Shown here: one piece after another, positions 1,439 to 57,634 of the stretch
Layout of the letters: the number at the start of each line of letters is the position of its first letter
Position numbering within the stretch: the stretch's first letter is position 1
Sequence record: OM858838
Source: Shigella phage B2
DNA length: 64,000 nt
Strand: one strand, 5' to 3'
Program-made: the position numbers and the translations under genes
Notes under the pieces: model-generated
Told to the model about the DNA's origin: nothing
What the model saw: the letters and a program-made list of their open reading frames with translations, nothing else
Databases searched by the model: none

Positions 1439-1683
1439 TGGATATCGCATTTGTAGTATCAAAAGTAATTGTTACAGAGTACACACTGCTTAGGCAGTGG
1501 TGGCCTGAACAGTTACGCGAGTCTAGATATGTCGATACAGATATGACTAGAACCTACTTCTTAGATAGACTTCCCTCTCCTGAATTGTATGAGCTTATGG
1601 ATAGGCTTAATGCAGAAGGAAGAACCTATCGATTTATGGACTTAAGAGGAGTGGACTCAGAAGATGCGTCACATAATCTTTGA
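1438..1683 (+). CDS. hypothetical protein
   Basis: 81-aa ORF in tightly packed + strand operon. Confidence 0.4.
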   Translation: MDIAFVVSKVIVTEYTLLRQWWPEQLRESRYVDTDMTRTYFLDRLPSPELYELMDRLNAEGRTYRFMDLRGVDSEDASHNL

Positions 1684-3319
1684 ACAGAACCAAAGATATC
1701 CAATAGCAATTCTCATCAAACCACAGCAACTAAAGAAGCGTGAGTTACAGGAAGCGTATATCGACCCTACTGGAATCAAGCCAAAGCAATTCATTGCATT
1801 TGACCTTGAGTACAATGGTAAGAAAGCTCCTGTATCTATGCAGAAAGACTATCTTAAAGACCTGTTACCAGAGCTATGCAACTTAAGAACAGAGTATGTT
1901 CTATGTTGCGATAGTGCTTACTTCAAGACTCTAACCAAGCAAACCAAAGCAGAACCTCATTATGGTTATGTATTGCCTTGTGCTATTGCTGGTTTCGAGC
2001 ACTTGAATATTATCTTTTGTCCTAACTATGCTCAGATTTTCTATGACCCATCAGTTCAGGATAAAGTCGATTTAGCACTTAAAGCATTGGTAGATAAAGT
2101 GAATGGGCAATACCAAGAGATTGGTAAGGATATTATTCATTCTGCTTATTACCCTTCAACAGTTGAAGACATTGAAGCTTGGCTTGAATCTCTTCATCAA
2201 TATCCAGTATTGGCGTCAGATATTGAGGCATTTAGCCTCAAATTCTATACAGCAGGTGTAGGTACTATTGGTTTTGCATGGGACCAACACAATGGAGGAG
2301 CATTCGCTGTTGATTACACGAATGAACCAGACAAGGCTAATAGGATAAGGCAGGCTCTTAAGAAGTTCTTTGAAACTTATAAAGGCAAACTGATTTGGCA
2401 TAACGCTAGTTATGACTTAACAGTGCTTATCCATCAGCTTTGGATGAAAGGTCTAATAGACCAGAAAGGACTGCTTAAGGGGTTGCATATTATGTGTCGT
2501 GATTTTCACGATACTAAGATTGTAACTTATCTGGCTACAAACTCTTGTGCAGGTAATGAATTGGGACTGAAAGCTCAGGCTCATGAATTTGCTGGCAACT
2601 ATGCACAAGAAGATATTAATGACATTACTAAGATTCCTCTTCCAGAGTTACTGGAATACAACTTAGTTGACTGTTTAAGCACTTGGTATGTTGCAGACAA
2701 ACATGCAGATACTATGGTGCTGGATGAACAGTGGGAAATCTATAATGACCTAATGTTACCTTCGCTGAAGAATATTATTCAGATGCAATTAACTGGTATG
2801 CCTATTGATATGGCAGAAGTTAAGAAGGTTAAAATAGAGATGACTAAAGAGCGTGATGGATATCTCAATGCTATCCGTTCATTTGCTGTAGTAGATTTAC
2901 TAGTTCATAACTTGCGTGAACAACATGTAGCTACTCGTAATGCTGCCCTTAAAACCAAGCAAATTACAATGTCTGATGATGAGACATTAAAAATAGAGTT
3001 TAATCCAAACTCTAACCCTCAGATGCAAGAACTCTTGTATGAGATTATGGGATTACCTGTAATCGATTATACCGAATCTAAACAACCTGCTACTGGAGCA
3101 GATACTTTAGATAAGTTAATTAACCATACAACAGATGACCGTCAGAAAAAGATACTCGAATGCCTTATTAAGTATTCTAAGGTAGAGAAGATTTTATCTG
3201 CATTCATCCCTGCATTTGAAGAAGCACCTTTAGCCGAAGATGGTAACTACTATCTGTTCGGTAGCTATAACTTAGGTGGTACTGTATCCGGTCGTTTGAG
3301 TTCATCAAAGCCTAAATAA
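1664..3319 (+). CDS. family-A DNA polymerase, 5' part (3'-5' exonuclease + N-terminal polymerase region); putative exon 1 ends at 3313
   Basis: 551-aa ORF with exo motif FDLEY and C-terminal GRLSSSKP, the first half of the conserved Pol A motif RLSSS-PNLQNIP; stop codon 3317-3319 lies inside the proposed intron. Confidence 0.8.
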   Translation: MRHIIFEQNQRYPIAILIKPQQLKKRELQEAYIDPTGIKPKQFIAFDLEYNGKKAPVSMQKDYLKDLLPELCNLRTEYVLCCDSAYFKTLTKQTKAEPHYGYVLPCAIAGFEHLNIIFCPNYAQIFYDPSVQDKVDLALKALVDKVNGQYQEIGKDIIHSAYYPSTVEDIEAWLESLHQYPVLASDIEAFSLKFYTAGVGTIGFAWDQHNGGAFAVDYTNEPDKANRIRQALKKFFETYKGKLIWHNASYDLTVLIHQLWMKGLIDQKGLLKGLHIMCRDFHDTKIVTYLATNSCAGNELGLKAQAHEFAGNYAQEDINDITKIPLPELLEYNLVDCLSTWYVADKHADTMVLDEQWEIYNDLMLPSLKNIIQMQLTGMPIDMAEVKKVKIEMTKERDGYLNAIRSFAVVDLLVHNLREQHVATRNAALKTKQITMSDDETLKIEFNPNSNPQMQELLYEIMGLPVIDYTESKQPATGADTLDKLINHTTDDRQKKILECLIKYSKVEKILSAFIPAFEEAPLAEDGNYYLFGSYNLGGTVSGRLSSSKPK

Positions 3320-4025
3320 ATTGGGCTGTTTAAACTTCGTGAATTCGGGGAAAATCCAGAACGGACAATCCCGAGCCAAGTCAACCAATCATGTCTTAAG
3401 AGGCAGAATGGACACTAAAAAATTAGAATATTTATATGAAAACACTTCTTTATCTCAGAAAGAGATTGCTAAGTGTTTAGGATTAAAATCTGCTAGGGCT
3501 GTTCAAAAATATTGTTACAGACACTATACAAGTGCCTATCGTAAAGAAAGGCATTCCAAGCTATTAGCTAAAGCTAAACTAGGAAGTTTAAACCCTATGT
3601 TTGGTAAATCTGGTTTATACCACCCCAGATATCTAGGAGTTGTCTCTGACAACAAAGGGTATTGGATGGTATTAAAACCAGAGTGGTATACAGGGCGTAA
3701 AAGCAGTAAGCATGTATTTTTACATTCTGTAGTTGTATGTGAACATCTAGGATGGACAGAAATACCGAAAGGGTATGTAGTTCATCATTGTGATTTTGAC
3801 CCATCAAATAATGATTTTGATAATTTAGTGGTGCTTACTGTAGCAGAACATATGAGCTTACATGCAGCATTGAAAGGTGTAACGACTATCTCGAAAGAGA
3901 GTACACTCAAGTGGGTGGAAGCGCGAAGGGCTGGTAACAGCCATGATATAGTCTGACCTGTATAGGAATATACAGCAGCACTGAATAGTGCGAGTACAGC
4001 TTAACGAACTGTACTGAACGTAGTG
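3314..4025 (+). other. putative group I intron in DNA polymerase gene (carries HNH endonuclease ORF)
   Basis: 5' splice site after U3313; exon agccu can pair with intron gggcu (3323-3327) as P1 with U.G at the splice site; intron ends on G4025; hairpins ctgtata-ggaa-tatacag and gtacag-n9-ctgtac in 3' region; splicing 3313/4026 gives in-frame GRLSSSKP-NMQQIP. Confidence 0.55.
3418..3956 (+). CDS. HNH homing endonuclease (intron-encoded)
   Basis: HNH motif HHCDFDPSNNDFDNLVVLTVAEHMSLH; start moved to ATG 3418 with GAGG RBS (track start 3321 lies in intron 5' structure). Confidence 0.75.
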
Positions 4026-4967
4026 AATATGCAACAAATCCCATCCTCTAAGAGTCCTTATGCCAAGCCTATTAAGCGATGCTTTAAAGCTGGTAAAGGT
4101 TGGCTTCTTATTGGGTTAGACTTTGCATCTCTAGAGGACCGTATTTCAGCTCTGACAACCAAAGACCCCAATAAACTTAAAGTTTATACTGATGGGTATG
4201 ATGGTCATTCTCTCAGAGCATTCGCTTACTTTGGCGACCAAATGCCTGATATTCAGAATACAGTGGATAGTATTAATAGTATTCAGGACTTATATAAGGA
4301 CTTTAGACAAGAATCTAAAGCTCCTACTTTTGCACTTACCTATCAAGGTACTTATCACACATTGATGGCTAACTGTGGCTTCCCAGAAGACAAAGCGAAA
4401 ATGGTTGAAAAGAGGTATCACGAACTCTATTTCGTCTCTGACCAATGGGTAGACGCCAAGTTAGCACAAGCCAGCAAAGATGGTTATATCACTGCTGCAT
4501 TCGGATTAAGAATCCGTACTCCATTACTCAAAAATGTTGTCTGGGGAATTAAACAAACACCATATGAAGCCAAAGCAGAAGGCAGAACTGCTGGTAATGC
4601 TTTAGGTCAGTCTTGGTGCTTGTTAAATAACCGAGCAGCAAATGAGTTTATGGAACGTGTATGGAATTCTCCTTATGCAGATGTAATCAAACCATGCGCT
4701 CAAATTCATGATGCTCAGTATTATCTGGTTCCAGATGATATTGATATTGTTCATTGGGTTAATGAGAACTTAGTTGAGTGTGTTCAATGGCAAGACCATC
4801 CCGATATCTATCACGAGGAAGTGAAGTTAGGAGGAGATTTAAGTGTCTTTTACCCATCATGGGCTAATGATATCTCCTTAAAGAATGGAGCTTCTAGAGA
4901 AGAAATCTTAGATACATGTGAAGTTGGATTGGATAAGTATCTTCACCCGGAGAAATATAAAAAATGA
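4026..4967 (+). CDS. family-A DNA polymerase, 3' part (palm/fingers); putative exon 2
   Basis: NMQQIP completes the split motif; motif A LDFASLEDRI, motif B KAPTFALTYQGTY, motif C QIHDAQY. Track ORF starts at GTG 4023. Confidence 0.8.
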   Translation, partial: NMQQIPSSKSPYAKPIKRCFKAGKGWLLIGLDFASLEDRISALTTKDPNKLKVYTDGYDGHSLRAFAYFGDQMPDIQNTVDSINSIQDLYKDFRQESKAPTFALTYQGTYHTLMANCGFPEDKAKMVEKRYHELYFVSDQWVDAKLAQASKDGYITAAFGLRIRTPLLKNVVWGIKQTPYEAKAEGRTAGNALGQSWCLLNNRAANEFMERVWNSPYADVIKPCAQIHDAQYYLVPDDIDIVHWVNENLVECVQWQDHPDIYHEEVKLGGDLSVFYPSWANDISLKNGASREEILDTCEVGLDKYLHPEKYKK

Positions 4968-5341
4968 GTATCTTACAGTCCCCTATTGATAATGCTCCTG
5001 CAATCTTACAGGAAGCACATCGTTGTATTGCTGACAGAGCACATGAACGTGACCAAGAATCTGAACGTTCAATGGAACGCACTGTAGCAGCCTTCAATGC
5101 AATGTATAAGCTCAACCTGACAGAAGAACAGGGTTGGATGTTTATGGTCTTCCTGAAAGCTGCAAGAGCTTCAGGAGGCTCATTCAAGCTTGATGACTAT
5201 GTTGATGGCTCTGCTTACTTTGCGTTAGCTGGTGAAGCTGCTATGCCACATCCTCAATTAGAACTGTCACTTTCTGAACCAGAAATGACTAGAAAACATG
5301 CAGAACATTTCGGAATTCCATTAGGAAAGGAACAAATCTAA
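4964..5341 (+). CDS. hypothetical protein
   Basis: 125-aa ORF, start overlaps polymerase stop. Confidence 0.45.
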   Translation: MSILQSPIDNAPAILQEAHRCIADRAHERDQESERSMERTVAAFNAMYKLNLTEEQGWMFMVFLKAARASGGSFKLDDYVDGSAYFALAGEAAMPHPQLELSLSEPEMTRKHAEHFGIPLGKEQI

Positions 5342-6105
5342 TGCAAGTTAAGTATGTAGACCATATGGGTAATGACCAACGTATTGTTGATGTTGCTCGT
5401 CAGTCATTTGCTAAGACAGATGCCACTGTACGTACTGAAGCTCAGAACCAAGGATTGATTCGTTATTTAGCTGAAGGTATTTCTTCTAAAGAAAGAGATT
5501 CAATTATCTTATCTATCCTGAAAGGTGTAAGTAATGAATTCTATTTTGATACTGAAGAAGATGCCGAGAAAGCTGCTGAAGAATTGTATAGAGATATTCG
5601 TCACCAAGCAGTGCATTGGACTCCATTTGCTCATACTGCAATAACCCTTCAGATGCAGGCTCCTATTCCTATTCGTACCCAAGCTTTTAAACATAAGCAG
5701 GGTTTAGTAGAGAATGAGGAATCTCGTCGATATATCAGTACAACGCCTGAAATATTTGTACCTGAATTTCGTTTAAGACCTGAAGGTTCAATCAAGCAAG
5801 GTAGTGCTGGTATTCATCCTGCTAATGATGATTGGAAACATACATACATTCAGATGACACAGGATGCTGTGTTTACTTATGAACGTATGATTGCAGAAGG
5901 TATTGCTCCTGAACAAGCCAGATTCATCTTACCTCAAGGTGTAGAAGTTAACTGGACTTGGACTGGCAACTTATTAGCTTTTGCTAACTTCTATAACAAA
6001 AGAAGTGATGCCCATGCTCAACAAGAAATCCAAGATTTAGCTGAGATGGTTCGTGCAATCATTGAACCACTATTTCCAATATCTTGGAAAGCTCTTACTC
6101 AATAA
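5341..6105 (+). CDS. ThyX-like flavin-dependent thymidylate synthase (variant signature)
   Basis: Recalled ThyX blocks: VDHMGNDQRIVDVARQSF, TPFAHTAITLQMQAPIPIRTQAF, ESRRY, ARFILPQGVEVNWTWTGNLLAFANFYNKRSDAHAQQEIQDLA; canonical RHR appears as KHK. Confidence 0.65.
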   Translation: MQVKYVDHMGNDQRIVDVARQSFAKTDATVRTEAQNQGLIRYLAEGISSKERDSIILSILKGVSNEFYFDTEEDAEKAAEELYRDIRHQAVHWTPFAHTAITLQMQAPIPIRTQAFKHKQGLVENEESRRYISTTPEIFVPEFRLRPEGSIKQGSAGIHPANDDWKHTYIQMTQDAVFTYERMIAEGIAPEQARFILPQGVEVNWTWTGNLLAFANFYNKRSDAHAQQEIQDLAEMVRAIIEPLFPISWKALTQ

Positions 6106-6115
6106 GGATTAACTT

Positions 6116-6745
6116 ATGTCTGTACGTTTAACTAATGCTGCTCGTGATGAAATCGTAAAAGCTGCTGTAAATAAATCTGGTTTTCCTAAACGTATCGAAG
6201 AAGCACGTACTGCTTTAGAAGATATTAAAATGGAATGCTGGATTGCAGCATTTGGTGGATTAAAAGCTTATCGTCGTTTATGTGACCGCTTTGAAACCAT
6301 TGAAGAAAAGATTAGTGAACTTCGCAAATCAGGTGTGAATGTACCAAGTCTTGGTTCAGGGCATACTTGGAGCAATTCCAAACTGAACCTCGCAGGTATG
6401 CAAGTTCCATCTCCCGATATGAATTGGGTATCGGATAAGTTTAAAGAGTTACGTGTCATTTATATGTATGACAGTAAACCTACTTTAACTGCGGATAACC
6501 CATTGGTTCAGAAATTCCTTGATGCTGAAAAAGCATTAGAAGATTTGAAATCATCTCGTCAACAAATCAAAGACAACGTTCAAGCAGTAGTTTACTCAGT
6601 ATCTACTACCAAACGTTTGATTGAAGTATGGCCTGAATCTGCTGAACTGATTCCAAGAGAAGTTGAAGTAGTTCGTGCAGGTTTACCTGCTATTAACTTT
6701 GAAAGTCTGAACGCATCAATTGGTATTCCATCCGAGAAGAAATAA
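6116..6745 (+). CDS. hypothetical protein
   Basis: 209-aa ORF in replication module. Confidence 0.45.
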   Translation: MSVRLTNAARDEIVKAAVNKSGFPKRIEEARTALEDIKMECWIAAFGGLKAYRRLCDRFETIEEKISELRKSGVNVPSLGSGHTWSNSKLNLAGMQVPSPDMNWVSDKFKELRVIYMYDSKPTLTADNPLVQKFLDAEKALEDLKSSRQQIKDNVQAVVYSVSTTKRLIEVWPESAELIPREVEVVRAGLPAINFESLNASIGIPSEKK

Positions 6746-6747
6746 TT

Positions 6748-13187: not shown

Positions 13188-16100
13188 TTAGTACAAACTC
13201 ACCAGAGGGTGTACTGTAAGTCCATTCAATGCTGTACCCATCCCAACGTTATAACTCAGACTACCAGTTACTAAGTTGGCTTCAGTAATGTTAGGTAATC
13301 CAGATTCAACACTGTTACCAAACATCAGGAACAATGCTCTCAATGGATTCTCTCTAATCGTTCTCAGAATGATTTTCTGGATACGAATCTTATAGTTCAG
13401 GAACCAAGTTAAACCAATAGCATCCAGATAGAATCTGGTACGACTTGGTAACACATCATAGTTCACGAACTCATCCATCACTCTGTTAAGCGCACTGTCT
13501 TTATCCATTGGATTACTCTTACGAGTAGTCAAATGTTTATACAATGAATACTTAGCAACAAAGTCACCATACTGGATTGAACGGTTCAGTAAGAAGTACA
13601 CGTTACTATCTCTTGAAAGGGTAACTTCCTTAGCAACACGTTTAACACTATCTGGAATACCAGATGTGTATTCATCCATCTTATTAAGTAATTTATCTTT
13701 CAATGAATAGTTATCTTGCTGTCCTAAATCCTCTGCAATGGTAGGCAGTAAACCTGCTTTGATTAAATCAGCAACAGGGTTACGAGCCTGAGAATCTTTC
13801 AGTTCTGAAATCTTTCTCTGATATTCGTCAGCCATTTTAGGATTATGGTTTACAGCCAGATAGTGAGAATACTCGTTAATCAGTTTCTCATTCTTTCTGT
13901 ACTCCTCAGCAGCCAGTACAGCAGTAGACATATCCTTAGCCATAGTCACAGGGCTTACACCAACAGTAGCTAAGTGAACCATGTTAGAAACAATGTTCGC
14001 TGCTGATACAACTATTGAACGAACTACAATCCAATCCTTCATTTCCTTCACGAATTCCATCAGACCACGTTCACCAAGTCTCAGATAGCGAGCAGCATTC
14101 TTACCTAAGAAGGTTTCAGCAATGCTGGTGAAAGCTTTCTGGAACTCTTTAGAGTAACCAGTCTGACCAGTCCACATATTCAGTACAGAAGGTTCACGAT
14201 AACCAAATGCGTTATTCAGTAAATCCTTACGTACTTTAATCTTACCATCAGGCCAAATCTTCTTAGCTTGTTCCTTCATCTCAATAGGCATCAGTTCATA
14301 AATCTCTTTTAACTGATGGTCTGTAGAGTTCTCATCCATAGTAATGTATTGGTATGCCCTGCCTTCTCTGGCATCCTTCACATACATTTCATGGAGTCTC
14401 TGGAGCAACATTTCATTGTATCTGGCTGCCTGAATCTCCTCAGCAATACGACCTTCCCAAGCACCGATTACCTTAGTGAAATCATTATCTACATCCAAAT
14501 GTGCTTCTTTGTTAGCTCTAGGCATCTGATATGAGTAACCCATAATTGAACCAGCACGATTCAATACAGGTTGCATATATGAGTTATTGCCAGTAGGCAT
14601 AGGAGCATTTGCATCAAATAAATTATCAATACTGCTTCTCTTACGAGTAGATAAATTATTCTTCTCAGTAGCTCTCCATATACCCGGAGTCATAGCACCA
14701 TTCACAGTTCTACCTGTAATTGGGTTTACTCCACCTACGGTGTTTTGCAGGGTACTCATTACACCAGCAATCCAACGAGGTTCACCACCATTGTTTGAAT
14801 GGTAGTAATACATTGGTTCCTTGTTGGTATCCTGTGGGTCACGAGCAACCTGAGCACCTCTGGTATACCCTCTACGAGATAAGCTTGGTTCATCTTTAAT
14901 AGATGCAATAATCACTTTCTTGTTAGGGTCTGACAGAGTAGGAGTAAATCCTTTAATCCCAGCTAGTGCTTGGTTTTGACCAGACTTAGCTAACTCTGCA
15001 CCCTGCAAGCTTGAATAATATTTGAGAGTGAAAGTCATCCCATTATTATTTGGTTCACCTTTAGTCATCTCTCTATTAATCAAATTACTTACAGTAGCAA
15101 TATCAGTCTGAGATAACTCTTTCAGTGCTGCCAGAGAAGCCATAGTATCAACCAATTGAGTAACAGTATTAACTGTTGCATCATTAGGTCTAACTCTGCC
15201 AGTACCAATTAAACGAGCAATAGCTGCTGCGTTAGGTAACTGATAAGCCAGTGGACTAACTCCATGAACCATTTGTTTAGCTAATCCATATGCAGACTTA
15301 ATATAGAAAGGAGCATTCTGTGCACCTGCTGTCTGCAATTGAGATTCAATAGAAGCAATCTCTTTAGCCAGTTCAGTTGGATTGGTTAAGAGTTCATTCA
15401 GTCGTGCCAAGTCATATCCATTGGCAAACAGATAAGCCATATCAGTATTAGCAACTACTCTCTGAATAGCTTCTTTCTCTGTTTGGTTCAGGGATACAAA
15501 TGTACTCTCAATCATACCCGGAACCATCTCACGAATAATCTGACGTGCTCTATCAGCAGCCATATTCTTCTGAGTCAGTAAGGTATGAATGGTGCTATTG
15601 GTTTCGTTAGAACCAATGAACTCATTAATCAGTTCAGCAACAGTACCTAACTTGCCATTCTGGTGAATGGTCATATAAATGTTAGTGATAGCATCACGTA
15701 CATCCTGAGCATCTTGGTCATTGAATACTGCTGAACCAGCAGTGATACCAAATGCTACAGACTTAGGTACTTTCTTCTCTACCTTGAGTAACTGTCTACG
15801 GATAGTGTGACCAAAGGATTTGAGTTTATCCTGAGTAGTATCAGTGATTTTCTCTGCACCTCTAACCAATCTACCAAACAGATTGTCTCTGGCTTCACTA
15901 TCAACATGACTAATATTCTTAGCCAGTTTAGTTAAGCGAGAAGCAACGTCAGTATTACCCAAAGACTTAGTAGCCAAACCCGATAACCAAGTAAGAATGG
16001 CATTGGTTAAATCACCAATACGTTCTCTCAGAGTTGTAGCTGGAGTCTGTCTGGTACGCTTAACACTAATCTGAGAAAGTTTATTTCTCAGTTGTTCATT

Positions 16101-19100
16101 GGTTTCTGCCAGTGCAATGAAGTTAGCCAGTCTATTAGTACGACCAGTAGCATCAGTAGTCACAGCAGTGTTACCAAATACAGCATCATATCTTTGTTTA
16201 GCTAATGCCATTTCACTAGCTGAACGATTATTAGGGTCAGTTAAGAAGTCTTCTACTTTCAAGGTATCTCTGGCTTGTGCATACAAACTACGTGCAACCA
16301 GAACACTTGGAGAAAAGTTCTCTAAACCATACTTCATAGAAACTTGCAGCATCTTGAATACAAATGCTTCTTTCTCACTCATGTTAAAACCATGAGCAAT
16401 CAATGCATTTGGAGAGTTATCAATCTCTGGGTCGATACTATCTACCAGAAGTTTTTCCTGATAATGGTCTAAACCAGAGATTTGCTGACCAGTATTCTTA
16501 ATCACTTTAATGATATTTGACTGGAGATAATCCAGTGTATCAGTCAAATGATTCACATGGTCTTGCGTAGCTTTACCAGCATCCAGTTTATTAAACAGAG
16601 TTTCTGCATCTAATCTATTGATGTTATTAGCATTGGTTTGAGCATAGCTAGTTTCATCATTAGATTTAACCGGATTAGTAGAGTCAGTTAAAGCAACTGT
16701 ATGCCCTAACAGACGTGACCAGTAAGAGGTAACATCTGGATTAGAGCCAATAGCAAACAGGCGCTTAATAGAATCAGCTAACTGTTTGAGTACATTGGTA
16801 ACAGTCCCAGCAATAGTCTTCTGAGTCATTGCATCAATCATTCTTGGGTTAACTAATCCCCATGCAATAAACTCAGCAGTAGCTTGAGACATATTACCAG
16901 AAGCGATATGAGTATTAATCAGGTCTACTACAGCATCAGTTTCTGGATTGGTGCTTGAATATTCATTCACAAACTTATTCATCAATCCTTCAATTGAAGC
17001 TACTTCTACTCTCTGAGCAGGAGTAATTGCTTCTGGATTGCTGTAATAGTTATGAACAGTATCAGCAGTAGCAGCATGAATTAACTCATGCATTACTGTC
17101 TCAATAGACTGAGAACCAATATAGATGTTCTGGCCTTGTGTAAGACCCAAGAACGTGTCATTAAACTCAACCTTAGTATCAGGTGTCATTTCCTGTTGAA
17201 CGCCTGAGAGAGCTTCTGGTGAGCCTACATACACATTAATATCATTAGGGATAGAATTGATAATCTTATCCAGAATGAAACCAGTGATTCTATTCTGGCG
17301 AGAAGGCAGAGATTTAGCTGCCTCTCTTACAGCAGCAACCACATCACCTTTAGCCAGAACTTTAACACCTTCATGACCTTTTACAGTTCTACCATTTCTA
17401 TCCAGAGCCTCAGTCATCTGACGAGTAGGAGGAATGGTTACTCTACCTTTAGGTAGAGATACAGAATCCATAGTAGGTAATTCAGTATTGGCTACTAACT
17501 GTTCCAGAGGAGTTCTGGTATCAGTTGCTTCTCCATCAGTCTGTTTACCATTCTTAACATTGAATGGAATATTGGCACCAGTCATCTGGTTAATGGAGGT
17601 AATAGCCTCACCACCTAACAGACCTTGTTTAATAGCAGTCTGAGTAGCAGCTTCTCTCTTAAGCAGAGTAGTGAATGCTTCAACCACTTCTGGACTAGTA
17701 GGTGCATTAGTTTCATCAGCACCAATCATTTCCATAATTCCACGGAAAGACTGTTCCAGACGAACATCTGCTTCTGGACCTAATTCCTCTGCCAGATTCA
17801 CTCCATCCATTGCTTGCTCAAAACGGTTAGTGAAATCTTGCAGTAAATCGAATTCATTCCAGCTTTGCAGAACACCTTGGTTAATAGCCTGAGAACCAGT
17901 ATCCAAATGAGATACAGCATTGATGTAGCCATCGAATACGTTCAGAGCATTGTTAGGATTGATATCACGAGCAATAGCCTGCATAGCTGCTTCTACAGAC
18001 TGAACCAGTAAAGGCATTACACGAGTACCCGGTTCAGTATAAGTAGGCATATCTACACCGAAGGTAGAACGACGCATCTTACCATCCAGTTCTCTACGTC
18101 CTCTGGATTCCATTCTGTGTACGTCAGATGGAACACGCCCTTCCTCACTCAGAAGAATACCTTCATTCAGCTTTTCAACATCTAAGTTGTTAGCAGTAAA
18201 CCAAGAATTGAAGATTGGCATTGAACCAATCAAGTAATTCTTAATGTCGTTGTACTGCTGCTGAGATAGAGATTCATATTTAGATAACTTACCTTCTTTA
18301 CGAAGTTCAGTTTCTAATCTCTCTACTTCTTTATTCCAACGAGACATGAATACTTCATGCATTACAGCAGCAGCATAGACCATCATCTTGCCACGATTAA
18401 CTACAGTACCAAATTCATTAGCAATGGATTCGTTTACTGCTGCACCAATACCAATCTTGATGTTCTGAGTAATAGCTTCGATTTGTTCACCGTCAAATTC
18501 AAACATAGTCACATCCTGACCTAAGTTGATAGGTGAACCAATCTGAACCCAAGAACCATTTCTGAATACCCGAGCAGTAGTCAGTTCATTAGTTGTATTA
18601 GTTAAGTCATTGATGTGTTCAATAGCAGCATCACGTTCTTCCTGATTAGTAGCTGCATCAACTGCTCTCAATGCTTCTGTGATTGCTTCGTAATATCCAT
18701 TAGCAATACCCATAGCAATCTTTCTATTGATTGCAGTAGCACCGCCTGAATAAACAGTTACTGTTACTGGATTCTTAAGTAAACCTCGACCAATCTGAAT
18801 TGGATGGTCTACATTTTCACCTTCAACAATATTCACATCACCAATCAGTTTGGATGCAGCAAGAGTAACCCTCATCTGATTCTTCAGACGTTCAATTTCA
18901 CGCATTTCTTTTTGCTGGAATTGACGTGGTTTATTCTTCATTGCAGCAATTCGGTTAGGAATATTTCTAACTGAATCCATCATTCTATTGATGTATTGCT
19001 GACTATCAGCAGCAGCAGTCTTATACAGGTCTAAGAATCCCGGTTCTTCAGCAGCATCATTATACAGACGGTCAGACTGCCCATAGAAGAAACCGCCCTT

Positions 19101-22100
19101 CTCCAATTTATTCAGTAAGTCCTGGTTCACATCTTTCAAACCAAGCTGAACAATGGAGTTAAATGGTCCATTAGTAACACCATCAAGCTCCAGCATTACA
19201 TGAGTCTGGAATGAGGTCTTACCTTGTTCTACAGCCAGTTCATATTGAGCCTGTGCATACAGAGCATGGAGAGTCTTAGTCTTCTCCTTACCTGCTTTAA
19301 CAGCCTGCAACAAAGTCTCAGCATCACTATCACTGATGGCATCCTGATTCTCAGCAGCTTTAAGGATATCGATAGCATCTCTGAACAGACCAGTACTGAT
19401 AGCTTTATTCAGTCTATCTCTGGCTGTTTCAGAAGACAGCTTATCAACAGCAATATCTAAGCCCTGAGCAATTGCATAATCAAGGAATGCACCATGCTGA
19501 GGGTTATTCAGTTCAATGGTAGATGGTTCAACAGTAACCAGTTCACGATGTAATTTAGCTGACTGAGGATTCAGGTCACCAGAGTTAAGCATCATACGGA
19601 AGTTACTGATTACGTTATAACCAAAGTAAACAGGAGTGGTAGCCAAAGGTAATCCAGCTTCAACCATTCTAGTTAAACCATTAACCAGAGTATTTATATC
19701 TCTTTCAATGGTACGGTTAGAACCCTGAATAGATTTCAGGTGAGCACCGTTAGTATTCTCTTCTGACTGAATGCCTAACATTCTACCAATCCACTGAGTA
19801 CCTAACTTATCAAGCATCAGGTCATGCAGACCCATGTTAATGAAGTGAGGTTGTTTGCTAGCTTTGTTACGAGCAGCAAGCATCTTCTCAGGGATATCCT
19901 GACCACCACCATTCTTAACTTTAGTGCTTTGACCTTTTGGTGGAGTACCAAAGTATGCACCTGCTCTTTCTCTCTGAGGATTAGTCAGTTGACCTAACAG
20001 GTCATTAGAATTCTGCATCAATTCTACTAAACGAGTAGCAGCAGGAGACTCTTCATTCATACGAATGAATACACGAGAGTTCTTCATGTTTGAGTCATTT
20101 ACTTTAGTAGAACCAACAGCAGCTAATTCAGAGTTTTTAACAACTGATTCCTGAACCAGATTAGCATTAATCATTACGTTCAATACTTCAGATGCCATTG
20201 CTTTAGACACAGCATCACGTACAGAGATAGGTGCATTAGGGTCTGCATTGATACCTAATACTCCAAAGATTTCTCTGCTTAAATCATCAATAACATTCTG
20301 ACGGTCAGTACCAACGTTACGCAGTAAGTCAGTCTGTTCTACAGTTGGCCTAGTCTTGTTATCTAAACCAAGAATATCCATTACTGTACGGTCATCATTG
20401 AATGTAGTTTCAGATGCATTACGTACAAACCACTGCATCATTCCAGCAGTCATTGCTTCAATTACTGGCTGCGGTAAGAAGTAAACATTCTCACCATTGA
20501 TGTTTCTAACTTCATCAAAGTACTCAACAGGATAAGTTTCCCAGAAGATACGCTGACCTTCAGGAGTTAATTTACCCCAAGACTGAATCAGAGATTGTTC
20601 AATAGCAGGGACTAAACCAGCAAACTGACGAAGTACATTTACTTCTTTCTCAGTTACTTGTTCTGGTTTGATATAACCTTTAAACAGATTCTGAATCTGA
20701 GTAATAGGATTAGAACCATTAGTAAAGATGCTATTAAGTCTCCCAGAGAAATTAGAAGTTCTCAGGAAAGCTGAACGTTTACCGGTAGGTTTAAACCATT
20801 TCTTAACTTGGTTTGTAGCTTGATATTCTTTATCTACATCAGAAGTAGACTTAGCATCAGAGCGTATTGTCTCTGCTTGCAGTCCATTCAGAATGTCATA
20901 GTTAACACCTTTCTCTGAACCAAGGTCTAATTGAGACTCATCCATCAGGTCAGTTTCTACATCAGTAGGTTTTTCCTGTAACTGGATATCAGATTCTACA
21001 GTATCTGGTTTCTCAAACAGTTCACCCTGTACAGGTTCAGTACGTACAGCTTCCTCAGACGCTACTGGCTGAGTTATTTCAGGCTGTACTGGTGTTTGTA
21101 CCTCTTCCTGAGAAGTCTGCTCAGAAGTCTCTACAGGAGCTTCTACAGTAGTCTGCTGAGATACAGGTTGAGGGAAAGTATTCCTGACGTGGTTCAGGAA
21201 ATCAGTACGTGCCTGAGAAGGTGTAGCCCATACTTCACGAGTACTACGTAAACTGAAGATATGCCCATCTGGTGTCATAACGTAAGGTACATTAGTGTCA
21301 CCATAATTAAAGGAAGACAGAACATCCTGTTTACCAGTAACTGTGTCCTCTCCAGGAATAATAGTAGTTTTACCACCATTAACCGGAACGGCACGAATAC
21401 CCCCCATGTCTTTACCAATAGCAATATAGTCTTTGCCATTATAGGTAAAGTACTGACCTAACTGCATATACAGTGCCTGCTGCTGTCCAGTAAATTCAGC
21501 AGATTTCATCTCAGGACCGGCAGGGATACCACTAGAAGTAGTCTGCTGAGGAGCTGGTTTAGTTTCTTTTTTAACAGGTGCAGATTCCTGAGTCTGGTTG
21601 TTCACTTCTTCAGAAGCAACAGGAGCAGACTGTGCAGGGATATCTACAGGTTTACCATCTACCAGTTGACTGGTAAGGGTATGAGCCAGTCTTACTGCAT
21701 CAGCATCATTACGAATCTCTTGGATTAATCCTTTAGAACGTACCGGATGGTACGTCATTGGATTTCCATCGAGAGACAGGTATGGCTGACCAGTAGTAGG
21801 ATTAATTACTTCTACAGGTTGATTTCCAGTAAAGTTCTGAGCAGCTTGGTCAAAGGCAGCAGCCTTAGTTTCCATATGTTCAGCAAAGCGATTCAGGTGG
21901 TCTAACAGACCCTGAGCACGAGCAGTATCACCTAATGATAATGCACGGAAGATACCTTGCTGATATTGCTGGATACCAATAAAGCCATCCGAACCTTCAC
22001 GTACATCTTTACCTACTTGGCTCATAGCCTTACCAGTAGCAGAGATGACCTTAAGTTTATCCACATCCTGCTGACTTAAACCAAGAGTATCAGCAGAGTT

Positions 22101-24413
22101 AACTAAACGGTCAGCTACATCTGGAGTAATAGAAGATGCATCTAAGTTCATCTGAGCCAGAACAGATTTAACATTCTTCTGAACTTCAGGAGATTTGTAA
22201 GTCTCTGGAGTAATCTCAGAAGGTAATGATTCCATGACTTTAGTCATTTCATCAGGAGTCAGTTTAAATCCTTCAGCAGTAGTCTTAACTGCCTGTACAT
22301 CAGGATGATTCAGTACAGCATTAATATTATCAATAGCAGTCTGATACTGAGCTTTCTGGTCTTCTGGAGCAGCATCCATCTGTGCCTGAATCTGAGGTAA
22401 TGCTTCTTCATATGCAGAGATAACACTGTTACCAACAGTAGCTAAATCTCTACGAGAAGCTTCATCTAGATTACGTTCTTTAATGGCACGAGAGATTCTC
22501 AGAATAGAATCAGGAGAACTGATTTCTTCTTCTGGAATAGCTTTGAATACTTCTTTGGCAGCAGGTTCAGTAACAGCATCTACAGCTTTAGTAGTTACAG
22601 TTGGTTCTACTGGCGCTTCAGTATTAGTTTGTGGGGCAGCTTGTTTAACTGATTCATTGGCAGCAGATACAGTATTTCTAAAGTCTTGTGCTCTGCTTTC
22701 AGTTCTACGAGTCTGTCTTGCATCAAATGCTGTACGACCTTGTTGAACTCCTTCTTGGATTGCTCTAGGTGTCTCACTGATAGCTGAACCAACAGCACCC
22801 ATACCCGCACCAGCAATAGCAGATTCAGCAACGTTTGAACCAATACCCTCAATGAGGGATTGAGATTCGTCAGCAGAGCTACGTACCCCGAGATTAGAAG
22901 CGAACTGACCAGAAGCGCCCTGTAATGCTTCCTCAACAGTCTCTTTAGCAGCATTCTGTGAAACCCTTGAAGATGCAGCCAGTAATCCTTTACCTTCCAG
23001 TAAAGATGGAGTTAACAGACGTGATTCAAAGGGAGCAGCAACCTTACCAGTTAATGCACCTAAAGTACCTGCCACAGCAGAAGTAACATTACCTGCTTGA
23101 GTACGTACCTGACTTCTAGCCTGAGATGGTGTAGCACCTTCAGCAATAAGGTCACGATACATTGGTGATTTTTCAGCTAACTGAGCATCAGTTAATTTAT
23201 CAATCTCATCCAGTGACTGTTGAGCATTTGAACCAGCTTCTTGGAAACCAACGTAACCAATAAATGCTCTTTCAGCAGCATCCTGTAGACGCTTTCTACC
23301 AAACTCAGTAGCAGCTAATTTAGTAGCAAAGTCCTCACCATACTCTTGAGCCAATTGCTTCAAAGCACCACGAGTAGCTAACTTACCTACGATACCACCA
23401 GTCAGTAAGTCTGGAGCAGATTCAGCAATCAGAGTAGTTAATGCACCTGGTGAAGTACCATACTGTTCAGCAGTATTAACGAACTGACGTAACTGTTCCT
23501 TAGCACCAGCTACTAATGGATTATCACCTTTAGCAATATCAGCAGCTTCTCTTGCTGCACCGCCTTGTTCAAAGCGTTGCTTATTGGCTTCGATAACAGA
23601 TTGTTCATATTGAACAGCAGGAGAATACTGAGAACGCTGTTCATCAACGAATTCTTTTAATGGCTTATCAATACCTGCTTGGTCTAACAGAGTAGGTTGC
23701 CCTACTTGGTCTTCTTGACCAGTAACATTAGCAATTAAATCCTGAGCATTCTGTAATGCTAAGTTACCTAAACTAGTAGCAAATCTTGCAGTATTACCTG
23801 CCCATACTTGGGCAGCATTACCAATGTCTGAAAGTTCCATAGGAGCATTTTCAAACTGGTCTGTATTAGCTTGAGCAATATTTAATGCAAGTTTGTCTCT
23901 AGCCGCTTGAGGACCATACTTCTGCTGTAAAGCAGAGATAGGCATATCTTTTAAATCAGCAAGATATTGGTCATTTGGATTAGTCTGTGCAGCTTGATTA
24001 GGAGCTACATAGTTAGGATGACTTGGGTCAAAAGGACCAGTACCACCAAATTCAGGAGATACTTGAGGATTAATCATCCTACGATAGAAAGGCTTAGTTG
24101 CTGCAATAGCATCATAGTTAGCCTGCATATCAGGAGTGGTTGGTTGAGTCTCAGGAATATTAAAATTATTAATATTCTGACCAGTCAACATTGCCTGCAT
24201 CTGTTCACGAGTATATTTAGGACCAGATTCAGCCAGACGAATAGCTTCCTGTCCTCTCTGATATTCAGGAGAACCTACAGGGAAATCTGTTTCTACTCCG
24301 GGTACTGGAGCACCCATCTCTACTTGTTTCTGCTGAGTGGCTTGATTTAGTTGTTGTGTTTTTTGTAAATCAACTCCAGCTAATTGTTGTTCTTTTTCAA
24401 ATCCGGTAGCCAT
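13188..24413 (-). CDS. virion RNA polymerase (N4 gp50-like vRNAP)
   Basis: 3741-aa ORF, the N4-like hallmark; T7-like motif B candidate IGRGLLKNPVTVTVYSGG; RBS GAGGA before start. Confidence 0.8.
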   Translation of the reverse strand: MATGFEKEQQLAGVDLQKTQQLNQATQQKQVEMGAPVPGVETDFPVGSPEYQRGQEAIRLAESGPKYTREQMQAMLTGQNINNFNIPETQPTTPDMQANYDAIAATKPFYRRMINPQVSPEFGGTGPFDPSHPNYVAPNQAAQTNPNDQYLADLKDMPISALQQKYGPQAARDKLALNIAQANTDQFENAPMELSDIGNAAQVWAGNTARFATSLGNLALQNAQDLIANVTGQEDQVGQPTLLDQAGIDKPLKEFVDEQRSQYSPAVQYEQSVIEANKQRFEQGGAAREAADIAKGDNPLVAGAKEQLRQFVNTAEQYGTSPGALTTLIAESAPDLLTGGIVGKLATRGALKQLAQEYGEDFATKLAATEFGRKRLQDAAERAFIGYVGFQEAGSNAQQSLDEIDKLTDAQLAEKSPMYRDLIAEGATPSQARSQVRTQAGNVTSAVAGTLGALTGKVAAPFESRLLTPSLLEGKGLLAASSRVSQNAAKETVEEALQGASGQFASNLGVRSSADESQSLIEGIGSNVAESAIAGAGMGAVGSAISETPRAIQEGVQQGRTAFDARQTRRTESRAQDFRNTVSAANESVKQAAPQTNTEAPVEPTVTTKAVDAVTEPAAKEVFKAIPEEEISSPDSILRISRAIKERNLDEASRRDLATVGNSVISAYEEALPQIQAQMDAAPEDQKAQYQTAIDNINAVLNHPDVQAVKTTAEGFKLTPDEMTKVMESLPSEITPETYKSPEVQKNVKSVLAQMNLDASSITPDVADRLVNSADTLGLSQQDVDKLKVISATGKAMSQVGKDVREGSDGFIGIQQYQQGIFRALSLGDTARAQGLLDHLNRFAEHMETKAAAFDQAAQNFTGNQPVEVINPTTGQPYLSLDGNPMTYHPVRSKGLIQEIRNDADAVRLAHTLTSQLVDGKPVDIPAQSAPVASEEVNNQTQESAPVKKETKPAPQQTTSSGIPAGPEMKSAEFTGQQQALYMQLGQYFTYNGKDYIAIGKDMGGIRAVPVNGGKTTIIPGEDTVTGKQDVLSSFNYGDTNVPYVMTPDGHIFSLRSTREVWATPSQARTDFLNHVRNTFPQPVSQQTTVEAPVETSEQTSQEEVQTPVQPEITQPVASEEAVRTEPVQGELFEKPDTVESDIQLQEKPTDVETDLMDESQLDLGSEKGVNYDILNGLQAETIRSDAKSTSDVDKEYQATNQVKKWFKPTGKRSAFLRTSNFSGRLNSIFTNGSNPITQIQNLFKGYIKPEQVTEKEVNVLRQFAGLVPAIEQSLIQSWGKLTPEGQRIFWETYPVEYFDEVRNINGENVYFLPQPVIEAMTAGMMQWFVRNASETTFNDDRTVMDILGLDNKTRPTVEQTDLLRNVGTDRQNVIDDLSREIFGVLGINADPNAPISVRDAVSKAMASEVLNVMINANLVQESVVKNSELAAVGSTKVNDSNMKNSRVFIRMNEESPAATRLVELMQNSNDLLGQLTNPQRERAGAYFGTPPKGQSTKVKNGGGQDIPEKMLAARNKASKQPHFINMGLHDLMLDKLGTQWIGRMLGIQSEENTNGAHLKSIQGSNRTIERDINTLVNGLTRMVEAGLPLATTPVYFGYNVISNFRMMLNSGDLNPQSAKLHRELVTVEPSTIELNNPQHGAFLDYAIAQGLDIAVDKLSSETARDRLNKAISTGLFRDAIDILKAAENQDAISDSDAETLLQAVKAGKEKTKTLHALYAQAQYELAVEQGKTSFQTHVMLELDGVTNGPFNSIVQLGLKDVNQDLLNKLEKGGFFYGQSDRLYNDAAEEPGFLDLYKTAAADSQQYINRMMDSVRNIPNRIAAMKNKPRQFQQKEMREIERLKNQMRVTLAASKLIGDVNIVEGENVDHPIQIGRGLLKNPVTVTVYSGGATAINRKIAMGIANGYYEAITEALRAVDAATNQEERDAAIEHINDLTNTTNELTTARVFRNGSWVQIGSPINLGQDVTMFEFDGEQIEAITQNIKIGIGAAVNESIANEFGTVVNRGKMMVYAAAVMHEVFMSRWNKEVERLETELRKEGKLSKYESLSQQQYNDIKNYLIGSMPIFNSWFTANNLDVEKLNEGILLSEEGRVPSDVHRMESRGRRELDGKMRRSTFGVDMPTYTEPGTRVMPLLVQSVEAAMQAIARDINPNNALNVFDGYINAVSHLDTGSQAINQGVLQSWNEFDLLQDFTNRFEQAMDGVNLAEELGPEADVRLEQSFRGIMEMIGADETNAPTSPEVVEAFTTLLKREAATQTAIKQGLLGGEAITSINQMTGANIPFNVKNGKQTDGEATDTRTPLEQLVANTELPTMDSVSLPKGRVTIPPTRQMTEALDRNGRTVKGHEGVKVLAKGDVVAAVREAAKSLPSRQNRITGFILDKIINSIPNDINVYVGSPEALSGVQQEMTPDTKVEFNDTFLGLTQGQNIYIGSQSIETVMHELIHAATADTVHNYYSNPEAITPAQRVEVASIEGLMNKFVNEYSSTNPETDAVVDLINTHIASGNMSQATAEFIAWGLVNPRMIDAMTQKTIAGTVTNVLKQLADSIKRLFAIGSNPDVTSYWSRLLGHTVALTDSTNPVKSNDETSYAQTNANNINRLDAETLFNKLDAGKATQDHVNHLTDTLDYLQSNIIKVIKNTGQQISGLDHYQEKLLVDSIDPEIDNSPNALIAHGFNMSEKEAFVFKMLQVSMKYGLENFSPSVLVARSLYAQARDTLKVEDFLTDPNNRSASEMALAKQRYDAVFGNTAVTTDATGRTNRLANFIALAETNEQLRNKLSQISVKRTRQTPATTLRERIGDLTNAILTWLSGLATKSLGNTDVASRLTKLAKNISHVDSEARDNLFGRLVRGAEKITDTTQDKLKSFGHTIRRQLLKVEKKVPKSVAFGITAGSAVFNDQDAQDVRDAITNIYMTIHQNGKLGTVAELINEFIGSNETNSTIHTLLTQKNMAADRARQIIREMVPGMIESTFVSLNQTEKEAIQRVVANTDMAYLFANGYDLARLNELLTNPTELAKEIASIESQLQTAGAQNAPFYIKSAYGLAKQMVHGVSPLAYQLPNAAAIARLIGTGRVRPNDATVNTVTQLVDTMASLAALKELSQTDIATVSNLINREMTKGEPNNNGMTFTLKYYSSLQGAELAKSGQNQALAGIKGFTPTLSDPNKKVIIASIKDEPSLSRRGYTRGAQVARDPQDTNKEPMYYYHSNNGGEPRWIAGVMSTLQNTVGGVNPITGRTVNGAMTPGIWRATEKNNLSTRKRSSIDNLFDANAPMPTGNNSYMQPVLNRAGSIMGYSYQMPRANKEAHLDVDNDFTKVIGAWEGRIAEEIQAARYNEMLLQRLHEMYVKDAREGRAYQYITMDENSTDHQLKEIYELMPIEMKEQAKKIWPDGKIKVRKDLLNNAFGYREPSVLNMWTGQTGYSKEFQKAFTSIAETFLGKNAARYLRLGERGLMEFVKEMKDWIVVRSIVVSAANIVSNMVHLATVGVSPVTMAKDMSTAVLAAEEYRKNEKLINEYSHYLAVNHNPKMADEYQRKISELKDSQARNPVADLIKAGLLPTIAEDLGQQDNYSLKDKLLNKMDEYTSGIPDSVKRVAKEVTLSRDSNVYFLLNRSIQYGDFVAKYSLYKHLTTRKSNPMDKDSALNRVMDEFVNYDVLPSRTRFYLDAIGLTWFLNYKIRIQKIILRTIRENPLRALFLMFGNSVESGLPNITEANLVTGSLSYNVGMGTALNGLTVHPLVSLY

Positions 24414-51205: not shown

Positions 51206-51544
51206 ATGGGTAGAGCAAAAGAGAGAATTCACATGGCTATCATCCATTCAATCATTGGTTCTAATTCAGAACCATCAACAGTAGTAGTCAACAAGTATAA
51301 GGAACCATACGATGTATATATCGGTAGAGGTAGTCTATGGGGAAATCCTTATACAGTTCAAGAACATGGCAGAGAACTATGCATTGCAATGTATGAGCAA
51401 TACATACGTGCAAGACTACATCAAGAACCTGATTTATATCTTCAATTACTTGAGCTTAAAGGTAAGAAGCTAGGCTGCTTCTGTAAACCTAAACCATGTC
51501 ATGGTGATGTATTAGTTAGACTCATCCAAGAGTACTCAAACTAA
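51206..51544 (+). CDS. conserved-domain protein (YIGR...WGNP...CxC...CHGD motif), start uncertain
   Basis: DVYIGRGSLWGNPY...GKKLGCFCKPKPCHGDVL; true start may be the internal Met at 51233 because the hairpins abut 51206. Confidence 0.45.
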   Translation: MGRAKERIHMAIIHSIIGSNSEPSTVVVNKYKEPYDVYIGRGSLWGNPYTVQEHGRELCIAMYEQYIRARLHQEPDLYLQLLELKGKKLGCFCKPKPCHGDVLVRLIQEYSN

Positions 51545-55030: not shown

Positions 55031-55534
55031 ATGTTAGAAGCTCGCGGTAATATGCTTGAAATGGAATGTGATGCGTTGTGCATTACTACCAATGGATTTG
55101 TTAAAAGCAATGGTGCATCAGTTATGGGTGCTGGTATTGCAAAGCAGATGCGAGTAACTATTCCTGGACTGGATAAAATTCTAGGTCAGAAGATTGCTCG
55201 TGAAGGTAACAATGTTCATTTCTTATTAAATTATAACAATATTGGAATTGTATCCTTCCCTGTTAAACCAATAACAGAAATTAGTAATGGTGAGAACTTT
55301 GTTAAACATAAGTTCTTCCCTGTAGGTACAACAGTTCCGGGATGGGCATGTAAAGCAAACATCGATTTGATTGTACGTTCATGCCAGCAACTGGTAGCAC
55401 TGGCTGACCAATATGGTTGGCAGAAAGTCTTATTACCAAGACCGGGATGTGGTGCTGGTGAGCTTAACTGGAGCCATGTGAAGAAGGTTATTGAACCTTT
55501 GTTAGATGACAGGTTTATCGTCTGCACCTATTGA
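55031..55534 (+). CDS. macro-domain-like protein (possible ADP-ribose binding/hydrolase)
   Basis: N-terminal DALCITTNGFVKSNGASVMGAGIA resembles the macro-domain Gly-rich block; 167 aa. Confidence 0.4.
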   Translation: MLEARGNMLEMECDALCITTNGFVKSNGASVMGAGIAKQMRVTIPGLDKILGQKIAREGNNVHFLLNYNNIGIVSFPVKPITEISNGENFVKHKFFPVGTTVPGWACKANIDLIVRSCQQLVALADQYGWQKVLLPRPGCGAGELNWSHVKKVIEPLLDDRFIVCTY

Positions 55535-55745: not shown

Positions 55746-55968
55746 ATTAATTACCATTTTAAATGGAATATATAATTTACCTGAACGCAAAGACTACGCT
55801 CCAAAAGAGTACATATGTGATTTAATCATATGTCCTGATGTACTTTGCAGTAATTGTCCAATGGGCAACCCACATTATTTAAATCCTGACAAAGAATTAT
55901 TTGTCACTCAAATCCATAAAACATTGGAAGTCATGAACCATGAAACAAGAAACTCAACTCCTGATTGA
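55738..55968 (+). CDS. small four-Cys protein, paralog 8
   Basis: MDKLITILNGIY..., C-x4-C-x4-C-x2-C. Confidence 0.45.
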   Translation: MDKLITILNGIYNLPERKDYAPKEYICDLIICPDVLCSNCPMGNPHYLNPDKELFVTQIHKTLEVMNHETRNSTPD

Positions 55969-57417: not shown

Positions 57418-57626
57418 ATGATGAATTGATTCTTATATTGGATTCATTCAGAAATTATTCAGTTAAAGATGGCTCATGTAGAGGAGATATATTCAATTTA
57501 ACAGGAACTTTTACACGTACACAGCAATGTGATGGCAAGTGTATTTCATGCCCATTAGTACAAATACGTGATAAAAAAATATATCCAGACCAAATCATTA
57601 TAACTTTCTCTCAACTAAATAAGTGA
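57414..57626 (+). CDS. small four-Cys protein, paralog 10
   Basis: MNDELILILDSFR..., C-x16-C-x3-C-x2-C, YPDQIIITFSQL. Confidence 0.5.
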   Translation: MNDELILILDSFRNYSVKDGSCRGDIFNLTGTFTRTQQCDGKCISCPLVQIRDKKIYPDQIIITFSQLNK

Positions 57627-57634
57627 GACTCAAG

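Follow-up and report, generated by a model that had tools for sequence, protein, structure and literature searches.

Flavin-dependent thymidylate synthases (ThyX) are recognised by an R-H-R signature, and a gene in the replication region of Shigella phage B2 encodes a protein that matches ThyX in several blocks but reads K-H-K at that site, with a long insertion ahead of it. When this DNA was read from sequence alone, two explanations were offered: an altered substrate specificity, possibly in a modified-pyrimidine pathway, or simply a divergent but functional ThyX. Here we ask which of the two better describes the gene, drawing on the 64,000-nucleotide stretch of record OM858838 (the window) and on related phages. 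Our analysis favours the second, on the strength of the conserved dUMP-binding and catalytic residues and of the exchange of this gene for an RHR-type thyX in the same genomic slot. We put the probability at roughly 0.85 that the protein is a functional flavin-dependent thymidylate synthase converting dUMP to dTMP, an uncharacterised phage variant of ThyX that we call K-type.

Family assignment and fold

The gene encodes 254 residues (Table 1), and its ATG start shares bases with the upstream stop codon (TAATG). Pfam Thy1 (PF02511) covers residues 6-246 with E 5.7e-36 (124.5 bits, cutoff 24.8); TIGR02170, the equivalog model for thyX in NCBIfam, scores 115.7 bits, above its cutoff of 87.9, and PHROG thymidylate synthase families match as well. 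The best structural matches in the PDB are solved ThyX enzymes, Thermotoga maritima (Tm) ThyX (E 4e-18) and others, at 25-28% identity. The sequence blocks behind the original call could also be located, VDHMGNDQRIVDVARQSF pairing with VDVMGNDLSAVRAARVSF of Tm ThyX and NWTWTGN...AHAQQEIQ with FFWTVN...SHAQWEIQ. An AlphaFold2 (AF2) model of the monomer, built from a 146-sequence alignment and without ligand docking, was confident (pLDDT 93.4, pTM 0.90), and Foldseek aligned it to Tm ThyX structures with E 4e-17 and target-normalised TM scores of 0.77-0.82, placing it in the Thy1/ThyX fold. Significant matches among the predicted viral structures of BFVD were all ThyX proteins, and that search yielded no better template for the hairpin described below. 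These features lie far beyond chance matches, and the protein shares its Pfam and NCBIfam family and its fold with the canonical enzymes of T. maritima (TM0449, PDB 1O26/1KQ4), M. tuberculosis (Mtb), H. pylori (Hp) and PBCV-1. The identity of the gene is not new in itself, since near-identical proteins already carry the GenBank names 'thymidylate synthase ThyX' or 'FAD-dependent thymidylate synthase'.

Table 1. Coordinates in the window of the thyX gene, its diagnostic residues, the exchange junctions and associated genes.
Feature	Coordinates	Strand	Basis
DUF6378 protein, 125 aa	4964..5341		PF19905, E 7e-11
thyX, flavin-dependent thymidylate synthase, K-type phage subfamily	5341..6105	+	profile, PDB and fold matches
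5' junction of the exchange, last 13 nt (ATGCAAGTTAAGT) shared with SP-058	5341..5353	+	alignment
Codons 45-91, net insertion of 44 residues, helical hairpin immediately N-terminal to H92	5473..5613	+	alignment, AF2 model
K117-H118-K119, counterpart of Tm R78-H79-R80 (canonical R-H-R)	5689..5697	+	alignment
S128-R129-R130-Y131, counterpart of Tm S88-G89-R90-Y91 (dUMP phosphate binding, Tyr lid)	5722..5733	+	alignment; roles from PMC6514825
R194, counterpart of Tm R147, invariant in the subfamily	5920..5922	+	alignment
L212, at the FAD-contacting Arg position (Tm R165 / Mtb R190 / Hp R165)	5974..5976	+	alignment; role and spacing from PMC6514825
K220-R221, an extra basic residue followed by the invariant Arg that binds uracil (Tm R174)	5998..6003	+	alignment
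3' junction of the exchange, near-identity resuming at the stop codon and ribosome-binding site of the next gene	6102..6115	+	alignment
Nmad5 ('nucleotide modification associated domain 5') protein, full-length, directly downstream of thyX	6116..6745		PF18757, E 5e-56; PHROG 1965, function unknown
dUTPase	61535..61984	+	PF00692, E 1.7e-38

The nucleotide site is kept and the flavin site is changed

In the HMMER alignment with Tm ThyX (native numbering, that is, PDB chain numbering minus 12), the RHR motif falls on K-H-K as had been proposed, and no RHR occurs anywhere else in the 254-residue protein. The spacer to the conserved serine is also one residue longer, eight in the query against seven in Tm (KHKQGLVENEESRRY vs RHRIASYNELSGRY), giving K117-H118-K119-X8-S128-R-R-Y in place of RHR-X7-S. 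Canonical ThyX was reportedly defined by its signature motif, by Myllykallio in 2002, a definition also applied in PMC2826268. The query departs from the literal R-H-R-X7-S by two conservative R-to-K changes and the longer spacer, with the central His retained.

Beyond the motif, the query retains the equivalents of Tm H53, Q75, E86, S88, R90, Y91, E144, R147, R174 and Q180, among them the dUMP-binding and catalytic set (Q114, E126, S128, R130, Y131, R194 and R221) and the folate-stacking His (H92). It is unlike canonical ThyX in the KHK-X8-S motif, in L212 for R165, in Arg for G89 and in a 44-residue hairpin. Outside the motif, FAD contacts are conserved at T94 (Tm T55) and changed at L212, which lies exactly nine residues before R221, where SP-058 ThyX, the canonical enzyme of a related phage described below, and Tm ThyX both have Arg. 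We take E58, N163 and N169 to be further FAD contacts in the 1O26 structure.

ThyX works as an FAD-binding homotetramer in which three subunits contribute to each active site. Published structures indicate what these positions do. The RHR motif mainly hydrogen-bonds the AMP phosphate of FAD, the FMN phosphate and the ribityl chain, its first Arg additionally contacts the isoalloxazine ring and dUMP, and the neighbouring subunit adds FAD contacts through Mtb Ser71 and Arg190 (Hp S50 and R165), of which Mtb R190 / Hp R165 stands nine residues ahead of the invariant dUMP-binding Arg, R199 / R174 (PMC6514825, review). In the Tm enzyme, R78 faces N1/C2=O of the reduced flavin and stabilises anionic FADH-, and H53 interacts with the folate pteridine; a basic residue is common at flavin N1/C2=O in flavoproteins (PMC11940539), which makes Lys at the R78 position a conservative replacement. 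The description of RHR as the dUMP-binding signature is thus only partly right: its first Arg does touch dUMP, but the motif serves chiefly the FAD phosphates and ribityl chain and the stabilisation of reduced flavin, and the residues changed here (R78, R80 and R165 in Tm numbering) have been published as contacts to FAD. Of five such positions in the literature, the RHR triplet and the equivalents of Mtb S71 and R190, three are changed in the query, one of them non-conservatively. Across five pocket columns, the query has as many basic residues as Tm and SP-058 ThyX, three (K117, K119 and K220), and K220 may compensate for the lost R165 equivalent. A search of the accessible literature for R-to-K or other RHR mutagenesis returned no direct data on Lys substitutions.

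A helical hairpin ahead of the folate-stacking His

An insertion of about 50 residues ahead of the motif had been noted. The insertion exists and measures 44 residues net, query residues 45-91 standing opposite just three in Tm (K50-H51-G52). In the AF2 model it forms a hairpin of two helical arms (49-61/63-66 and 72-87), and it ends one residue ahead of H92 and 25 residues ahead of KHK. Alignments of the query core with all solved ThyX enzymes start at query residues 82-92 and chain positions 45-67, which places the start of the aligned core 35-45 residues closer to the N-terminus in the solved enzymes, consistent with their lacking an insertion at this site. Among 115 representatives of the K-type subfamily, 74 carry a segment of at least 15 residues (mostly 30-58) here, with a recurring RG.xxxEW... 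pattern, and the K-type motif is found both with and without it, a third of the subfamily having none. Between the query and Klebsiella phage MY01, hairpin and core have similar nonsynonymous divergence (dN 0.16 vs 0.125). The hairpin probably helps to shape either the active site, on its folate/NADPH side, or the surface of the tetramer. We also considered the insertion as an intein or other mobile remnant and rejected the idea: it is a short helical hairpin, conserved in the subfamily and under purifying selection, whereas genuine inteins in this family span 130-400 residues and occupy other sites.

A K-type subfamily in phages and prophages

Neither the KHK motif nor the insertion proved peculiar to this gene. 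KHK occurs in 120 of the 120 closest homologs (64-98% identity), and the closest relatives, those of Salmonella phage As2 (98.8%) and Klebsiella phage MY01 (81.5%), together with KpCHEMY26, FBKp27-like phages, Pectobacterium CB1/Nepra, Pseudomonas LUZ100 and Vibrio VBP47, share the KHK...ENEESRRY signature, are annotated as thymidylate synthase and lie in phage replication or dNTP modules. VBP47 ThyX has KHK without the hairpin, and LUZ100 ThyX has its extra residues elsewhere in the N-terminal region.

To describe the wider group, we searched 50%-identity clusters exhaustively with HMMER, which returned 252 representatives at E < 1e-30, and from the top 150 took the 123 that were full-length and aligned them to the ThyX proteins of T. 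maritima and SP-058. At the R78 position these 123 have Lys in 108 cases and Arg in 13, at H79 His in 101 and Ser in 20, and at R80 Gln (52), Lys (31), Thr (14) or others; G89 is replaced by Arg in 117. At the R165 position the six commonest residues are Y, A, L, M, F and V, and most members have gained an Arg at the N169 position. The equivalents of S88, R90, Y91, E144, R147, R174 and Q180 are invariant (123/123), and those of H53 (120), Q75 (121) and E86 (119) nearly so. Judged from this alignment, the K-type proteins form a large subfamily in phages and prophages with the signature [K]-[H/S]-x-X8-S-R-R-Y, in which the R165-equivalent Arg appears lost throughout, the nucleotide pocket intact and the contacts to the flavin phosphates rebuilt. 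The K-type signature, the loss of the R165 equivalent and the hairpin are not described in the literature searched, and neither there nor among the PDB matches did we find an assayed or solved member. One evolutionary survey excluded any sequence with over two dissimilar residues relative to RHRX7S (PMC2826268).

A scan of ~186,000 species genomes with patterns for the KHK subset recovered only 23 loci, many on contigs of about phage size (27-76 kb) and others on larger contigs or complete chromosomes; one chromosomal locus inspected closely, in Amphritea, is a phage replication module. There, the K-type gene lies immediately upstream of the large and small subunits of ribonucleotide reductase (RNR) in a module with PolA, ligase and a 5'-3' exonuclease. 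In VBP47 it stands between DNA polymerase and RNR alpha/beta, and in LUZ100 between DNA polymerase and an exonuclease, with MazG and RNR further downstream.

Some K-type proteins contain inteins, which enter the active site at three different places: ahead of the T55 equivalent (HW|C...GN|TPFAH), within the motif (KHKVGF|C...HN|CENEVSRRY) and before the S88 equivalent (...|C...GN|SRRY). Such placement is typical of sites under strong functional constraint. The intein-bearing representatives (P0129, P0136, P0138, P0150, P0176, P0185, P0192, P0251, P0261 and P0263) are 367-601 residues long, some with HNH-like modules. A separate K-type representative (P0155) has a Cys-rich insertion in the variable loop.

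A canonical thyX in the same slot

The window is that of an N4-like podophage, with Salmonella phages As2 and FSL SP-058 (SP-058; Schitoviridae, Humphriesvirinae, Ithacavirus) as its closest relatives. We aligned positions 4800-6900 with both. From the 3' end of the DNA polymerase gene, across the DUF6378 gene and up to nucleotide 13 of thyX, the window and SP-058 are all but identical; between the two junctions (Table 1) the body of thyX is unalignable. The SP-058 protein (YP_008239453) sits in the same slot between the DUF6378 and Nmad5 genes, with flanks 98.8% identical, and is a canonical ThyX of 210 residues with the motif RHRSFTFQEFSQRY, the R165-equivalent Arg and no hairpin, sharing 30% identity with the query over 168 residues. 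Such a clean replacement argues strongly that both types of ThyX have the same function, and suggests that the RHR and K-type forms are interchangeable. As2 shares the K-type thyX (98.8% at the amino-acid level); its Nmad5 gene, nearly identical between window and SP-058, is clearly more diverged and followed by an extra gene, pointing to local mosaicism.

Codon comparisons indicate that the K-type gene is under purifying selection, with dN/dS of 0.028 between query and As2 (26 synonymous and 3 nonsynonymous changes) and of 0.089 between query and MY01.

Genome context and search for base modification

The replication module around thyX comprises a helicase, DNA polymerase A, the DUF6378 protein, ThyX, the Nmad5 protein, a PD-(D/E)XK exonuclease, primase, an AAA_24 ATPase, SSB and RusA. 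The family-A polymerase is apparently split into ORFs of 551 and 314 residues by an HNH gene (PF13392, E 1.4e-10), the three occupying 1664..3319, 3321..3956 and 4023..4967. SP-058 and As2 have a single polymerase gene of 2592 nt encoding 863 residues, near the sum of 551 and 314, and phage Pollock is annotated with the same split; the HNH gene has the appearance of a free-standing homing endonuclease that has invaded the polymerase gene. On the minus strand, 13188..24413 encodes 3741 residues, presumably the giant virion RNA polymerase that is a hallmark of N4-like phages, and two smaller ORFs resembling RNA polymerase are found at 55940..56863 and 57623..58861, the latter with a PF00940 match.

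Several early-region ORFs stood out in their own right. Those with DUF4326 (51206..51544, E 4e-26), a weak, below-cutoff Macro-domain match (55031..55534, E 0.002) and a TerB domain (63020..63469, E 1e-7) may be host-takeover or anti-defence genes. An ORF of 329 residues in the early/middle region (60460..61449) has both collagen triple-helix repeats (E 8e-23) and a YadA-like membrane-anchor domain (E 1.4e-19), as trimeric autotransporter adhesins do; its As2 equivalent is named 'tail fiber protein'. In the segment of As2 missing from the window (As2 14054..19160) lie genes for three AAA+ ATPases and for a DUF2201 metallopeptidase/VWA protein (E 2e-42), each listed in As2 as hypothetical only.

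Hypermodification of thymidine through 5-hydroxymethyl-deoxyuridine (5-hmdU) involves a dUMP hydroxymethylase and a 5-hmdU DNA kinase, aGPT-Pplase or other tailoring enzymes (PMC8989533). We scanned the window ORFs, mainly those of at least 100 residues, together with ~8 kb missing from the window and read from As2, and among these found no such domains and no ThyA-like hydroxymethylase, nucleobase kinase, glycosyl- or amino-acid-transferase, dTMP-excluding or other tailoring enzyme. The phage dUTPase would supply dUMP to ThyX.

The two immediate neighbours of thyX proved to be poor guides to its role. We set the Nmad5 protein aside as a sign of base modification: PHROGs lists no function for it, and in SP-058 the canonical ThyX lies between the same two neighbours, Nmad5 and DUF6378, so that the pairing is not peculiar to K-type enzymes. 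The only experimental paper on Nmad5 ties it to sensing by the Tmn defence system, and Dhillonvirus phages escape that system through a point mutation in nmad5 (PMC11846954). The DUF6378 protein was likewise rejected as a conserved partner of K-type ThyX, the ORFs upstream of thyX in LUZ100, VBP47 and the Amphritea prophage being unrelated to it; no PDB relative of DUF6378 was found. RefSeq phage records, like PHROGs 474 and 1167, name it 'phosphofructokinase', which looks like a propagated mis-annotation because the protein has only 125 residues and no match to a PFK domain.

Weighing the explanations

What counts against a functional, dTMP-forming ThyX is the departure from RHRX7S, the Nmad5 neighbour, a hypothesis from another phage taken up below and, as the one non-conservative change, the apparent loss of the R165-equivalent Arg. 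The flavin-site changes can be read as the same reaction with different cofactor handling, through weaker or exchangeable FAD, FMN, or another reductant or docking partner. These changes recur consistently across the subfamily, and the hairpin, itself under constraint, abuts the folate-stacking His. However, the positive charge of the pocket is largely retained, Lys could serve in place of Arg at flavin N1, the members without a hairpin still have the K-type motif, and the exchange with an RHR enzyme on a shared genomic background suggests that a special partner is unnecessary; we consider this explanation unlikely. Similarly doubtful is its broader form, in which K-type enzymes would be a biochemically distinct, phage-specific class of ThyX whose FAD pocket and hairpin alter flavin binding or reduction (exchangeable flavin, FMN or another electron donor), with a modified dUMP as product a more distant prospect within it. 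Decay into a non-catalytic pseudo-enzyme or moonlighting protein has still less to recommend it and strikes us as barely credible. The RHR motif is reported necessary for Mtb ThyX activity and is missing here, and not every ThyX homolog is clearly active, given that C. glutamicum ThyX is reported to lack detectable activity in vitro. Yet dN/dS stays within 0.03-0.09, more than 100 clusters at 50% identity share seven catalytic or substrate-binding residues without exception and three more with few exceptions, the model fold is confident and well packed, and inteins sit in the active-site motifs.

A change of chemistry or substrate is the remaining alternative: the enzyme's product would be a modified pyrimidine nucleotide such as 5-hydroxymethyl-dUMP, or its substrate some other nucleotide, and it would feed DNA modification, perhaps with the Nmad5 protein. 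Beyond the deviating signature and the strong Nmad5 match next door, it can draw on gp130 of Bacillus phage SP-15, a Thy1-family protein hypothesised to be a hydroxymethyl-dUMP synthase, and on the presence of the ThyX-family structure 4p5a among the query's PDB matches, albeit as a weak one (E 1.4e-11). We take 4p5a to be PolB, a UMP C5-methylase of polyoxin biosynthesis with the ThyX fold plus extra loops, which would show that the substrate can change within the fold; those loops presumably lie near the nucleotide 2' position and not ahead of the H53 equivalent, and nothing points to ribonucleotide use by the query. The positions contacting uracil, phosphate and deoxyribose are all invariant in the K-type subfamily, K-type genes elsewhere adjoin RNR, and the scanned ORFs contain a dUTPase and no recognisable base-modification genes. 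Moreover, with a canonical ThyX in the same slot and the same neighbours, a phage with near-identical flanks would have to tolerate thymine and a modified base alike. Altered specificity, the first of the two original explanations, is therefore disfavoured, and we regard it as very improbable.

Proposed role and significance

As a functional ThyX, the enzyme would boost dTTP supply while the N4-like phage (Schitoviridae, Ithacavirus-like) replicates, fed with dUMP by the phage dUTPase. The K-type subfamily combines an unchanged nucleotide pocket with remodelled contacts to the phosphates, ribityl chain and reduced ring system of FAD: Lys may assume the role of Arg at the position facing N1/C2=O, the third motif residue varies (K/Q/T), and the R165 equivalent is lost while other basic residues arise nearby (K220 in the query, Arg at the N169 position in most members), with the predicted helical hairpin ahead of the folate-stacking His as an addition in many members.

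The K-type evidence does not indicate a new pathway or modified DNA; the variation is mild. It does indicate that the textbook RHRX7S signature is not universal in ThyX, a large phage-borne subfamily having [K]-[H/S]-x-X8-SRRY instead, and that surveys filtered by motif, such as that of PMC2826268, may under-sample K-type ThyX. The exchange of RHR and K-type genes amounts to a natural experiment and offers a ready-made isogenic pair for testing. Across the subfamily, the residues on the dUMP side appear immutable and the contacts on the FAD side plastic, a distinction that matters for the design of ThyX inhibitors and for how these enzymes hold their flavin.
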